Counted from the first letter of the stretch, positions 2,365 to 4,906 are shown. The stretch: 5,837 nt of DNA from a virus (IMGVR_UViG_2684622619_000009), one strand, 5' to 3'. The notes: generated from the letters alone by a model not told the origin. Translations and numbers: made by a program.

Positions 2365-2646
2365 ATGATACTCCGGCAGTGTGCGGGAACGATGAAGGTA
2401 AAAAGCGTTGGCGCACTTATCGGACGAACTGAAGCGGCAGTGAGAACGAAGGCACGGGAGCTGGGCATCAGCATGATGTTACGTGGTGATTTTCACCCGT
2501 CGGCAAAATATTCTCAGCGTGATATTGAGCTGGCGCGGCAACTGCATCAGAGAGGCATGCAAAGAAGGGAAATTGCCAGAAAATTAGGCATGCCGCTGCG
2601 CATAGTGAATAACTACGTTTATTTCGACAGGAGGGTGTCTGCGTGA
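2365..2646 (+). CDS. Small phage protein with helix-turn-helix-like segments
   Basis: Frame open 2242..2646, but the upstream part overlaps the preceding gene out of frame and looks non-coding (G/R/A-rich). Likely starts are GTG 2329 (GTGA overlap with the upstream stop) or ATG 2365; ATG 2365 is chosen. HTH-like stretches: SVGALIGRTEAAVRTKARELGI and RREIARKLGMPLRIV. The start is uncertain. Confidence 0.5.
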   Translation: MILRQCAGTMKVKSVGALIGRTEAAVRTKARELGISMMLRGDFHPSAKYSQRDIELARQLHQRGMQRREIARKLGMPLRIVNNYVYFDRRVSA

Positions 2647-2870
2647 AAATCCTGTATCAGGATTACGGCCCGGTGGGGCAGGTGGTTATCAGCAGTACTG
2701 TAATGGAGTTTCGGAAGCATAACCGTGTGGTGGATGCTGTGCTGTTAACCTGTCCGGGGATATCGGCGAGTCGTGCAGGTGTGTTTATTATGAAGACGAA
2801 ATTATATGGCAGTAAGGCGTGGATAAAGAAGGCGTATCGTGTAGCGTTGCAGGAGGTTAACAGTGAGTGA
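2643..2870 (+). CDS. Hypothetical phage protein (75 aa)
   Basis: GTG 2643 is 7 nt after AGGAGGG (2629-2635) and overlaps the upstream TGA (2644-2646), indicating translational coupling. Confidence 0.55.
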   Translation: MKILYQDYGPVGQVVISSTVMEFRKHNRVVDAVLLTCPGISASRAGVFIMKTKLYGSKAWIKKAYRVALQEVNSE

Positions 2871-3174
2871 AATTAAAGAAATGCCGGTAGTTCGTGACGG
2901 ATATGGCTACTGGACACATCCTGAATATGAAAAATTCTGTGATGGTCGGGAATATATTTCAACGGAAGAGTTTAACGCCTGGATGGAGGAAAATAATCTT
3001 CAATACGTCCTCTGCTTCAGAGATGAAGGATGTGCTGACCTTGATGCGTGTGATGCTGATATTTCTGCATGGGAACCGGAACGACCAGAGGGCGATGGCT
3101 GGTTTATTGGTTCCATTCATGATACGGAAGATGGCCCGGTTTGTGTCTGGTTGCGAAATAAGGCTGAAGCATAA
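2863..3174 (+). CDS. Hypothetical acidic phage protein (103 aa)
   Basis: GTG 2863 is 6 nt after a perfect AGGAGG (2851-2856) and overlaps the upstream stop (2868-2870). Acidic, Cys-containing product; stop TAA 3172-3174. Confidence 0.6.
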   Translation: MSEIKEMPVVRDGYGYWTHPEYEKFCDGREYISTEEFNAWMEENNLQYVLCFRDEGCADLDACDADISAWEPERPEGDGWFIGSIHDTEDGPVCVWLRNKAEA

Positions 3175-3273
3175 AGGCGATAAACCAACTAACAACTAAA
3201 TACTGAAGATTTAAATCAGAAACGATTTTTATTAAATCCTTAACCGGAGGGATTCCTGCACCCTCAGAACATC

Positions 3274-3301
3274 AGGAGGCCGCCCGAAAGGGCGGTAAGA
3301 A
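3274..3301 (+). promoter_or_regulatory. Translation initiation region: AGGAGG followed by a GC hairpin with GAAA tetraloop immediately upstream of ATG 3302 (possible hairpin-bridged Shine-Dalgarno)
   Basis: AGGAGG at 3274-3279; stem CCGCCC (3280-3285), loop GAAA, stem GGGCGG (3290-3295); then TAAGAA and ATG 3302. There is no U-tract, so it is not an intrinsic terminator. Confidence 0.35.
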
Positions 3302-3520
3302 ATGAAACATTATTTAGAAAAAAATTACCCACGAAAGAGCAGAACAACAGAGTTTCTGTTTTTCATTCTGTTTATAGTGTTGATGATACCGATATCCCCG
3401 CTATTACTGGTCTGGATAATTGGAAGGACATTTGAACCAGTTATTGAGCTATATACCGATGTGACATGGGAATCATTCAGCGCACTGCACAATAAAATTA
3501 ATCCGTATAAGGAAAACTGA
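3302..3520 (+). CDS. Small single-pass membrane protein (72 aa) in an AT-rich moron-like insert
   Basis: ORF with a basic N-terminus (KNYPRKSRTTE), one strongly hydrophobic segment (FLFFILFIVLMIPISPLLLVWIIG) and a soluble C-terminal tail. The gene and the ~125 bp upstream are visibly AT-rich compared with flanking genes (by eye, not computed). Stop TGA 3518-3520 sits 1 nt before the next ATG. Confidence 0.6.
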   Translation: MKHYLEKNYPRKSRTTEFLFFILFIVLMIPISPLLLVWIIGRTFEPVIELYTDVTWESFSALHNKINPYKEN

Positions 3521-3521
3521 T

Positions 3522-4079
3522 ATGAGCACTATTACCAGAGAACGCGCGGAGATTAAATCATACATCACAGGCTTCCTGAGCGACTCGGCGCACGATAACA
3601 AGTCTTCAGACAGCCTGCTGGCTAATGTGTTTCGTATCGCGCTGGCATCACTGGAAGCAGAGCCGATAGCAATGGTAGTGCCTGATGAAATGGATTTGCT
3701 TACCTGCCATCTCGACGGTGTAACTAAAACATATGCTGATGGCTGGAACGCCTGCCGCGTCGCCATGCTTCAGGCCGGAAACTTTCGGGAAAATAAGAAT
3801 TCGTCAACCAACAATTTTCGGGAAATCTCGGAAACGTCAACCAGATCTCCGATAACTCTGGATGGCTGGATAAGCTGTACTGAGCGAATGCCTGAAAAGA
3901 GCCAGAACGTGCTTATTTCGATGAATATCGATAGCGAGGCTGGGCCATTAATATATTCCGCACGCTATCTCGGAGGCACGTTCCGGCGCGGAGGTATAGC
4001 AGTTAGTCCGGGTAATGATCTTAGGCAAGCAACCCACTGGATGTCGCTACCAGAACCGCCGCAGGAGGTGAATCAATGA
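3522..4079 (+). CDS. DUF551-like prophage protein (185 aa)
   Basis: ATG 3522 is 8 nt after AAGGA (3509-3513). The C-terminal ~70 aa (DGWISCTERMPE...ATHWMSLPEPPQ) matches my recollection of the DUF551 signature (W-I-s...LPe start, THWMPLPEPP end). Not verified by search. Confidence 0.7.
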   Translation: MSTITRERAEIKSYITGFLSDSAHDNKSSDSLLANVFRIALASLEAEPIAMVVPDEMDLLTCHLDGVTKTYADGWNACRVAMLQAGNFRENKNSSTNNFREISETSTRSPITLDGWISCTERMPEKSQNVLISMNIDSEAGPLIYSARYLGGTFRRGGIAVSPGNDLRQATHWMSLPEPPQEVNQ

Positions 4080-4159
4080 CCTGGCCTGAAGCATTCACAA
4101 CGGTAGGAATTGCGATGGCGGTGGCGCTGGTGGTGTATTCGATTTGCCGCTGGGGATAA
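4076..4159 (+). CDS. Small hydrophobic peptide (27 aa), translationally coupled to the DUF551-like gene; absent from the supplied ORF track
   Basis: ATG 4076 overlaps the upstream TGA (ATGA) and lies 7 nt after GGAGG (4064-4068). Product MTWPEAFTTVGIAMAVALVVYSICRWG is a single predicted transmembrane helix. Stop TAA 4157-4159. Confidence 0.4.
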   Translation: MTWPEAFTTVGIAMAVALVVYSICRWG

Positions 4160-4165
4160 AAACGG

Positions 4166-4194
4166 TTTGCGGGAAAAGGATAGTTAAGTAGAAT
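4166..4194 (+). promoter_or_regulatory. Putative sigma70 promoter of the hok mRNA
   Basis: -35-like TTTGCG/TTGCGG (4166-4172), 16-17 bp spacer, -10 TAGAAT (4189-4194); the predicted transcript start near 4201 coincides with the conserved hok 5' leader sequence. Confidence 0.4.
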
Positions 4195-4198
4195 TGCT

Positions 4199-4226
4199 GC
4201 GGGTGCTTGAGGCTATCTGCCTCGGG
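4199..4226 (+). promoter_or_regulatory. hok mRNA 5' leader: stem-loop GAGGC-TATCT-GCCTC and the 5' partner of the fold-back pairing
   Basis: GCGGGTGCTTGAGG (4199-4212) is complementary to CCTCAACGCACCCGC (4492-4506) with one bulge; hairpin at 4209-4223. The layout resembles the 5' end of plasmid R1 hok mRNA as I recall it. Confidence 0.5.
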
Positions 4227-4243
4227 CATGAACACCAACGGCA

Positions 4244-4319
4244 NNNNNNNNNNNNNNNNNNNNNNNNNNNNNNNNNNNNNNNNNNNNNNNNNNNNNNNNN
4301 NNNNNNNNNNNNNNNNNNN
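4244..4319. other. Run of 76 N (masked or unresolved sequence) inside the hok locus
   Basis: Directly visible. It interrupts the hok leader and hides the start of the hok reading frame. Confidence 0.99.
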
Positions 4320-4442
4320 ATCGTCATCTGTTTAACCGTCATAGTGACGGCACTGGTAACGAGGAAAGACCTCTGCGAGGTGCGAATCCGAACCGGTCAG
4401 ACGGAGGTCGCTGTCTTCGTAGACTACGAATCTGAGAAGTAA
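4287..4442 (+). CDS. hok: Hok/Gef family type I toxin (HokC/HokD-like); N-terminal ~11 codons fall inside the N-run
   Basis: Visible translation 4320..4439 is IVICLTVIVTALVTRKDLCEVRIRTGQTEVAVFVDYESEK, stop TAA 4440-4442. It closely matches the Hok/Gef core as I recall HokC/HokD (…ALVTRKDLCEV.IRTGQTEVAVF…). Start 4287 is inferred from a ~51-aa family length and assumes the N-run length is accurate. Confidence 0.8.
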   Translation, partial: XXXXXXXXXXXIVICLTVIVTALVTRKDLCEVRIRTGQTEVAVFVDYESEK

Positions 4443-4449
4443 GAGACCA

Positions 4450-4506
4450 GGCGGGGGAGTAATCTCCCGCCACCTCTGATGTGTCAGGCATCCTCAACGC
4501 ACCCGC
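4450..4506 (+). promoter_or_regulatory. hok mRNA 3' structured region: post-stop hairpin and fold-back-inhibition (fbi) element
   Basis: Hairpin GGCGGGGGAG-TAAT-CTCCCGCC (4450-4471) with no U-tract; 4492-4506 pairs with the 5' leader at 4199-4212. Confidence 0.5.
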
Positions 4507-4561
4507 GCTTTACCATACTGAAAATGCTGTTTGAATGTTCATCTCTGAAAGAGGACTATGA

Positions 4562-4906
4562 ATGAAAAAGGTATTGATTGCAGCACTTATTTCCGGTGTG
4601 TCTTTTGGCGCTTTTGCACAGCAGGGTGGTTTCCAGGGGCCAGAAGCAGAGCGTTCAACAGTAGCGCAGGCAAAAGAACTGAAGGATGATGCATGGGTTA
4701 TCCTTGAAGGGAGCATCGTTAAAAAAGTGGGTGATGAACGTTATGAGTTTCGTGACAATAGCGGGACAATTGTCACGGATATTGATGACAGCGTATGGGC
4801 CGGGCAGAATGTTTCTCCGAAAGACAAAGTAAGAATTGAGGGTGAAATTGATAAAGACCTGAGCAGTGTTGAAGTTGATGTAAAGGCACTGAAATTATTA
4901 AAGTAA
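4562..4906 (+). CDS. YgiW/YdeI (BOF, bacterial OB-fold) family periplasmic protein with N-terminal signal peptide
   Basis: ATG 4562 is 5 nt after GAGGAC (4551-4556). Signal peptide MKKVLIAALISGVSFGAFA, then QGGFQGP and the pattern DDAWV.L.G.IV...Y.F.D.SGTI..DID...W.G..V.PKD.V.I.GE.DKD..SVE.DVK, which fits E. coli/Salmonella YgiW(VisP)/YdeI from memory. Product is 114 aa. Confidence 0.85.
   Translation: MKKVLIAALISGVSFGAFAQQGGFQGPEAERSTVAQAKELKDDAWVILEGSIVKKVGDERYEFRDNSGTIVTDIDDSVWAGQNVSPKDKVRIEGEIDKDLSSVEVDVKALKLLK

Follow-up and report, generated by a model that had tools for sequence, protein, structure and literature searches.

A predicted single-pass membrane protein of the DUF4014 family, carried as an optional gene behind a portable structured leader in a lambdoid Escherichia coli prophage

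Several small phage proteins, namely Gnarl1-3, D3 Iap and the epsilon15 alpha-polymerase inhibitor, alter the O-antigen by way of host enzymes (PMC12373910); the Gnarl proteins measure 40-90 aa, and Gnarl3 binds the soluble GalU (PMC12373910). The DUF4014 proteins, to which the gene studied here belongs, resemble them in being small phage accessory products, too small for enzymes, for which an action by binding host envelope-biosynthesis proteins is proposed. They differ in that DUF4014 is predicted to be membrane-embedded, whereas the partner of Gnarl3 is soluble, and no sequence relationship between DUF4014 and these proteins was found; DUF4014 sequences were likewise absent from the supplementary files of the Gnarl screen (PMC12373910). 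Within the family itself, the only functional attribution is the annotation of epsilon15 gp46, to which the label "sugar / O-polysaccharide acetyltransferase inhibitor" can be traced and which is echoed in the record of g341c gene 23 ([quoted passage not shown]). Published wordings on epsilon15 are ambiguous, one being "inhibit O-acetylation" (PMC3715488) and the other, on the inhibitor, "proposed ... not investigated to date" (PMC9558356). For a second label, "released from the phage upon host infection", which is attached to the PHROG and to RefSeq phage records, a literature search returned no source paper, and searches for DUF4014, L0067 and WP_000683609 returned nothing.

We analysed a stretch of viral DNA of 5,837 nucleotides (IMGVR_UViG_2684622619_000009), the whole of which is called the window below. 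A preliminary description had divided positions 3175-3520 into a 127-nt spacer (3175-3301) and a 72-codon ORF (3302-3520), a layout that we recovered unchanged. The features on which the following account draws are:

3175-3230, plus strand: AT-rich 5' half of the spacer, GC 0.286
3213-3217 and 3224-3228, plus strand, within 3175-3230: weak A/T hairpin, AAATC with GATTT, followed by a T-run
3231-3301, plus strand: conserved structured leader, GC 0.535, predicted fold of -25.4 kcal/mol, z -2.86
3237-3240 with 3274-3277, plus strand: predicted pairing in the leader, UCCU with AGGA
3247-3251 with 3261-3265, plus strand: predicted leader hairpin 1, GAGGG with CCCUC
3274-3279, plus strand: strong Shine-Dalgarno (SD) sequence, AGGAGG
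3279-3296, plus strand: leader hairpin 2 of GNRA type, GCCGCCC-GAAA-GGGCGGU, 7 bp, 18 nt, then AAGAA before the AUG
3302-3520, plus strand: DUF4014 gene, 72 codons, 72 aa, identified by Pfam and PHROG matches, dN/dS, invariant residues and a structure model
3302-3352, plus strand: basic N-terminal segment
3353-3424, plus strand: hydrophobic segment (residues 18-41)
3425-3517, plus strand: conserved C-terminal helix with LHNKxNPY
3518-3520, plus strand: stop codon TGA
3318-3324, plus strand: A7 homopolymer in codons 6-8 of DUF4014
3325-3492, minus strand: antisense ORF of 55 codons, a shadow ORF
3522-4079, plus strand: DUF551 gene, Pfam PF04448, E 5e-20

The preliminary description recognised no family for the product. 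The protein nevertheless matches Pfam PF13198 (DUF4014) over its full length (E 1e-24; 87.2 bits against a gathering threshold of 23.2 bits; residues 1-72 on profile positions 1-72 of 72), matches phrog_1832 over its full length (E 1e-44), and is held in RefSeq as WP_000683609.1, "DUF4014 family protein". The gene is already catalogued, as a member of the DUF4014 family of phage membrane proteins, and we regard this identity, together with the anatomy of the protein given below, as practically certain. The median dN/dS was 0.20 at a mean dS of 0.49 (287 pairs among 27 distinct homologous genes); judged by this substitution pattern, DUF4014 is under purifying selection, with dN/dS near 0.2, and the ORF at 3302-3520 is a genuine gene. 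Among the retrieved loci, 10 of 57 homologous copies were not intact, most of them having A6 or A5 at the A7 tract, and these shorter tracts could stem from slippage or from sequencing error. The internal Met28 could restart a 45-aa product. The antisense ORF at 3492-3325 was considered as a gene and rejected, its dN/dS being 0.30 versus 0.18 for the plus frame over the same bases; it is open in 26 of 28 homologues, and because its third codon positions are shared with the plus frame and its constraint is weaker, we read it as a shadow ORF.

The claim of a basic N-terminus, one long hydrophobic helix and a tail of about 30 residues was upheld in each part: residues 1-17 carry a net charge of +3, residues 18-41 form a 24-residue hydrophobic segment (best 19-residue Kyte-Doolittle mean 2.92), the 31 residues that follow (42-72) carry a net charge of -2, and a single-pass protein is predicted. 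The AlphaFold2 model (mean pLDDT 81) has one helix at residues 14-28 and another at 32-66, the two being separated by a break at the invariant residue Pro30, and the C-terminal tail is amphipathic, with muH up to 0.48. From this architecture, the protein is predicted to be a bitopic inner-membrane protein with its N-terminus in the cytoplasm and its tail in the periplasm. When 21 members were aligned across the E. coli and Salmonella branches, which are about 50% identical, 20 positions were invariant, including Y9, P10, E17, P30, E45, E49, Y51, W56 and F59 and the C-terminal motif L62-H63-N64-K65-x-N67-P68-Y69; most of the invariant residues lie outside the hydrophobic core, the extramembrane parts being the most strictly conserved. 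The family layout, about 72 aa with a basic N-terminus bearing YPR, a hydrophobic segment with a central Pro and LHNKxNPY, is found in full in the 72-aa protein and retained in two distant members (P0149 and P0151), and the most divergent members keep the architecture; a length of exactly 72 aa is that of nearly all full-length members listed. A sequence profile search of the PDB gave chance transmembrane matches only (E about 0.5), Foldseek with the model gave no match in the PDB or BFVD, and the NCBIfam search returned noise only.

The protein is 100% identical in hundreds of E. coli genomes, and a 938-nt stretch around the ORF is 100% identical in the chromosomes of O157, O26, O121 and other E. 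coli; of 5426 complete genomes, 511 contain 80% or more of this stretch and 2461 contain some part of it. Among 1.84 billion cluster representatives, searched exhaustively with a profile, only 25 DUF4014 proteins were found, and all members with a named organism belong to Escherichia, Shigella or Salmonella. A scan of species-representative genomes returned E. coli and S. flexneri only, an under-count, since it relies on two exact peptide patterns; within E. coli the family occurs in many serotypes. DUF4014 appears in 127 GenBank phage records, the carriers including 933W (L0067), VT2-Sakai, many Stx1/Stx2 phages, the P22-like ES18 (gene 39), epsilon34 (gene 27), g341c (gene 23), epsilon15 (gp46) and the P1-like D6. 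The 933W, epsilon15, epsilon34, g341c and ES18 proteins belong to the same family as the protein studied here and share its 72-aa length, its invariant motifs and its early-operon setting, with no structural difference. Distant members are found behind DnaB or RecT, in runs of small early genes that share one strand, with Ead/Ea22 and DUF551 genes nearby.

In a lambdoid E. coli prophage of Rac-like/STEC type, the window covers the early-right region. The first genes encode an O-like initiator, which has a DnaT domain, and a P-like loader, and they are followed by genes for a DUF1627 protein and an HTH protein. Two small hypothetical proteins come next, then the 72-aa ORF and the DUF551 protein, and beyond these lie the hok/gef gene, in part masked by N, and genes for BOF/YgiW and DUF968 proteins. 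According to RefSeq, the operon that contains DUF4014 runs on to RusA and a Q-type antiterminator. DUF4014 has the replication genes on one side and the Q antiterminator on the other, any lysis gene lies several kb downstream of it, and a holin or lysis protein was rejected as a candidate because the gene lies outside the lysis cassette with its endolysin and spanin genes. The DUF551 ATG follows the DUF4014 stop codon by 1 nt, so that the two genes are probably translationally coupled, and in all 50 contexts in which a downstream ORF was found, the next gene started 1-3 nt past the stop.

A pair of related loci makes the insertion visible. L011 has the order 103-aa gene, leader, DUF4014, DUF551-type gene, and L116 has the same flanks (about 97-100% identical) and lacks DUF4014; the extra stretch of about 220 nt in L011 spans exactly the DUF4014 ATG to the stop plus one base, with no flanking non-coding DNA. 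Where the 103-aa gene lies upstream, the leader is followed by DUF4014, a 57-aa acidic protein, a 173-aa protein, a 196-aa protein or directly by a DUF551-type gene. The starts of DUF4014 (ATGACTGCATTA) and of the next gene (ATGACTGAATTA) are nearly identical, which offers a short homology for gain or loss. Morons of lambdoid phages, as defined by Juhala et al. (2000) and Hendrix et al. (2000), are the described class with which such an insert invites comparison. DUF4014 is like them in its deviant base composition and in separating, as an additional gene, two genes that are neighbours in a relative; unlike them, it has no promoter or terminator of its own by prediction and lies inside a polycistronic run with 1-nt intergenic distances. 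In 2600-4600, including the spacer 3175-3301, a scan predicted no sigma-70 promoter and no intrinsic terminator, with the proviso that the promoter scan used a crude consensus from which a weak promoter could escape; the A/T hairpin at 3213-3228 did not pass the terminator scan. Of the term "moron-like" in the preliminary description, the extra gene and its composition can thus be kept and the own promoter and terminator cannot. Given the ORF-sized indel, the 1-3-nt junctions and the lack of a predicted promoter or terminator, DUF4014 is best described as a facultative cassette in a polycistronic mosaic region: it is an optional insert, not a classical moron. The distinction between a cassette inside an operon and a moron is a clarification of the record.

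The leader in front of the gene is notable for its portability. Its core, GGAGG-CCGCCC-GAAA-GGGCGG, recurs exactly in 19 GenBank phages and in at least 120 IMG/VR contigs, with an ATG 2-11 nt downstream in nearly every copy among the matches listed; in E. coli lambdoid phages, the ORFs behind it belong to six or more unrelated families, one of them for a 60-aa acidic protein, and a single phage can have as many as two copies, separated by about 1 kb. The long form, present in the window, has about 90 conserved nt, and the sequence type of 3175-3230 is conserved in other long-form leaders; the short form directly follows the stop codon of an ead/Ea22-like gene. The leader is not an obligate part of DUF4014, because the DUF4014 genes of epsilon15 and g341c leave no room for it. 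In Rac-SA53 (L003 2941-3760), another small ORF (MLTLKHF...) stands behind the same leader and is split by an IS1 with the 8-bp target duplication AAACATTT; an insertion of this IS1 within DUF4014 was considered and rejected, the actual target being that different small ORF. A permissive-E-value Rfam search of the whole window gave only a chance snoRNA match elsewhere and no family for the leader, and the hairpin sequence had no match in a literature search.

The arrangement recalls a known form of translation initiation. Nivinskas et al. reportedly published, in 1999, the study behind the split initiation regions of phage T4 genes 38 and 25. In our leader, the SD sequence ends at 3279 and the AUG begins at 3302, a gap of 22 nt that the hairpin at 3279-3296 (-14.4 kcal/mol and z -3.77 when folded alone) would reduce to about 5 nt. 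Split or bridged initiation regions are described for T4 genes 38 and 25, and gene 38 shares with the leader the 22-nt gap, the stable hairpin within it and the effective spacing of about 5 nt (PMC3014915); unlike the T4 elements, the leader is portable and stands before many unrelated genes in lambdoid accessory regions. The leader at 3231-3301 accordingly has both marks of a bridged ribosome-binding site, an overlong SD-AUG gap and a hairpin that would restore a spacing of 5-11 nt, and by analogy with T4 the hairpin probably brings SD and AUG to a working distance. In one gene class that follows the hairpin, a separate GGAG lies 7 nt from the ATG, and the leader may equally be an mRNA-stability element or a recombination joint. 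An antitermination site of the boxB/nut or put type was rejected for the GNRA hairpin, since as many as two copies occur in one phage, well within operons, its short form directly follows a stop codon with no boxA-like partner, and a start codon lies 2-11 nt downstream of it; an intrinsic terminator on either strand was rejected for lack of a U-run.

Covariation was assessed in 50 distinct sequences, a sample for which leader copies were sought by altered 3' arms and which is therefore enriched for 3'-arm variants. In this biased sample, 96.9% of cells in the leader stems pair, compared to 38-58% with slid partners; two-sided changes occur in only 2 of the 16 pairs, with 24-93 of 500 shuffles matching the observed values. 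For the hairpin at 3279-3296, a compensatory variant CCACCC/GGGTGG (G-C to A-U) occurs in 7 loci, G.U and A.C intermediates are present, and several C-to-U changes retain a G.U pair on the sense strand only; in hairpin 1, a change in L064 that had been taken as a compensatory pair was rejected as a U.U mismatch. With few two-sided changes, shuffles that reach the observed values and a biased sample, the RNA structure is plausible and not proven. In an unrelated viral contig, L177, position ~7747 (minus strand of the locus) holds AGGAGG-CCCCCC-GAAA-GGGGGG, 10 nt and an ATG, an analogous design which suggests that hairpin-bridged ribosome-binding sites may be more widespread. We regard the portable SD-hairpin leader as the most useful by-product of the analysis, bearing on how accessory genes are expressed and exchanged in lambdoid phages.

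Our leading explanation for the locus as a whole, to which we give a probability of roughly 0.4, joins the cassette, the bridged leader, early expression, a host membrane partner and a change of the envelope. DUF4014 would be carried as a single-gene cassette, with no promoter or terminator of its own, in the tightly packed and strongly mosaic accessory stretch that extends from the replication genes to Q; judging from its position, it would be transcribed as part of the early operon upon induction or infection, and, on the T4 gene 38 model, translated from the portable leader whose hairpin draws SD and AUG together. The product would present a basic cytoplasmic N-terminus, one proline-kinked membrane helix and a periplasmic amphipathic helix of about 30 residues ending in LHNKxNPY. 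Through the membrane helix and the conserved tail, it may bind a polytopic inner-membrane protein of the host stoichiometrically, and this binding would modify the cell envelope. That DUF4014 acts by binding a host membrane protein is, taken by itself, about an even bet; a bitopic protein that binds a polytopic membrane acyltransferase is a reasonable mechanism, by analogy with the small proteins that target the O-antigen polymerase in D3 and epsilon15.

How far the epsilon15 attribution can be carried over is a separate question. With tblastn, the 72-aa protein is 50% identical to epsilon15 gp46 (NP_848254) over 72 aa (E 9e-11), and both fall in the same Pfam family. Two findings speak against the acetyltransferase label: DUF4014 is part of a lytic early operon, not of a lysogenic-conversion module adjacent to int, and epsilon34 also carries it. 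To our knowledge, the epsilon15 target is not known in the hosts of the O157 Stx phages, the Rac-like prophages or the P1-like D6, all of them carriers of DUF4014. Epsilon34 infects cells that epsilon15 has already converted (PMC7380047). Because the identity with gp46 is 50%, the hosts are many, those of epsilon34 included, and the operon is a lytic early one, only the general mechanism is favoured; a specific role as an acetyltransferase inhibitor appears quite unlikely. More doubtful again is the extended proposal that the family inhibits AT3-type acyltransferases, or another polytopic envelope-polysaccharide enzyme of the host, and that the SD-hairpin leader is at once a dedicated portable expression cassette and the joint at which lambdoid phages exchange accessory genes by recombination. 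Should the gp46 attribution hold, a change of receptor or serotype would result, and such a change is already a kind of exclusion. Were it confirmed and extended, a 72-aa protein of many pathogenic E. coli would be an envelope-remodelling factor, with a bearing on serotyping, phage susceptibility and phage therapy, and if DUF4014 does inhibit acyltransferases or another such enzyme, many prophages of STEC, Shigella and Salmonella would remodel the O-antigen or the enterobacterial common antigen by inhibition and not by an added enzyme. The present value lies mostly in the record: for the label "released from the phage upon host infection", as for "acetyltransferase inhibitor", no evidence could be traced in the literature searched.

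Among the alternatives, the one that survives best, unlikely as we hold it to be, is the one named in the preliminary description, a superinfection-exclusion, abortive-infection or toxin-like factor; the protein would then act on the membrane by itself, depolarising it or stopping DNA from entering. Such a role would suit a bitopic membrane protein of small size encoded in the accessory region of a prophage, the hok/gef toxin and a RelE/RelB pair in the same prophage indicate that the neighbourhood carries cargo of this kind, and the idea overlaps with our leading explanation, since envelope modification would amount to exclusion. Against it, PADLOC gave no match for DUF4014 or for the neighbouring genes; with no predicted promoter of its own, the gene is not expected to be expressed from a repressed prophage; and there is no antisense promoter or antitoxin partner of the kind that type I toxins have. 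The strict conservation of the extramembrane parts suggests specific recognition over bulk membrane damage, and intact copies are maintained in hundreds of genomes. The narrower candidate of a Hok/Gef-like type I toxin was rejected: such toxins have their own promoter, an antisense RNA or fold-back and conservation of the hydrophobic peptide only, whereas for DUF4014 no promoter is predicted on either strand, Rfam gives no match and the extramembrane motifs are the most conserved.

That DUF4014 is a membrane anchor or regulatory partner of the downstream protein, usually of DUF551 type, and works as a pair with it, we consider very unlikely. A DUF551-type gene does follow within 1-3 nt in the window, in epsilon15 (gp46/gp47), in g341c (as a truncated EaA) and in many IMG/VR loci, and DUF551 and Ead/Ea22 genes accompany the distant members. 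In many other loci, however, the gene directly after DUF4014 encodes an HNH endonuclease or an 87-aa protein, L116 retains the same DUF551-type gene with no DUF4014, and the shared 5' codons of the downstream genes resemble a recombination joint, not a functional link. These codons occupy 3522-3545 in the window; in the downstream genes of L002, L011, L013, L050, L116 and other loci, unrelated genes behind DUF4014 or the leader have about the first 8 codons in common, M-[AST]-[ELT]-[IL]-T-[KR]-[EK]... (ATGACTGAATTAACCAAAGA). As far as the sequences go, they look like a conserved joint for recombination between cassettes, and the leader itself may double as such a joint for cassette exchange.

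Base composition bears on the last alternative. The preliminary description had contrasted an AT-rich spacer and ORF with GC-balanced phage genes and taken this as a sign of separate acquisition. Windowed GC content bore out the AT-rich ORF, which at 0.356 against a window mean of 0.512 (sd 0.056) is the lowest 219-nt stretch (minimum at 3296; 0.24% of 219-nt windows reach a value this low). The contrast applies to the 5' half of the spacer and not to the conserved structured half at 3231-3301, and the surroundings are not uniformly balanced, the 103-aa gene upstream of the spacer having a GC of 0.449 and a GC3 of 0.36. Within the ORF, GC1, GC2 and GC3 are 0.37, 0.30 and 0.40, and much of the low GC, at codon positions 1 and 2, arises because the protein is rich in Phe, Ile and Leu. 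GC lies at 0.34-0.40 in each of the 27 distinct homologous genes from other contigs, in any context, and low GC is therefore a family trait and not a mark of this insertion; what stands of the separate acquisition is the insert itself, as seen in the L011/L116 indel. Recent acquisition from an AT-rich donor, with DUF4014 as transient cargo that has no role for the phage, would fit the GC minimum, the presence/absence polymorphism and the several copies frameshifted at the poly-A tract, but it is highly improbable given the family-wide composition, the share of the bias due to the protein itself, the purifying selection and a profile search in which no AT-rich donor lineage was seen.

Some further features of the window lie outside the insert. 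Directly after the DUF551 gene, a 27-codon ORF (4076-4159, plus strand; MTWPEAFTTVGIAMAVALVVYSICRWG) carries no RefSeq annotation, and its ATG overlaps the DUF551 stop (ATGA); there are 76 instances of it over 184 retrieved loci, including a divergent variant (MNWPEAFAITGVAMAIAFLVYVICRWG) with conservative changes, and it may be a real single-helix microprotein. An N run at 4245-4319 masks the middle of the hok/gef-type toxin gene, whose readable C-terminal part is ...IVICLTVIVTALVTRKDLCEVRIRTGQTEVAVFVDYESEK and whose product carries the annotation "Hok/Gef family protein" in the RefSeq region of identical sequence. Within the O-like initiator gene, about 10 GTCACG iterons with a 10-11-nt spacing form two clusters (201-260 and 482-530), a region that is probably the replication origin, and after them, at 529-575, the 12-nt tandem repeat ACAGATAAAGAT is present in 3.6 copies and encodes a (TDKD)n linker.
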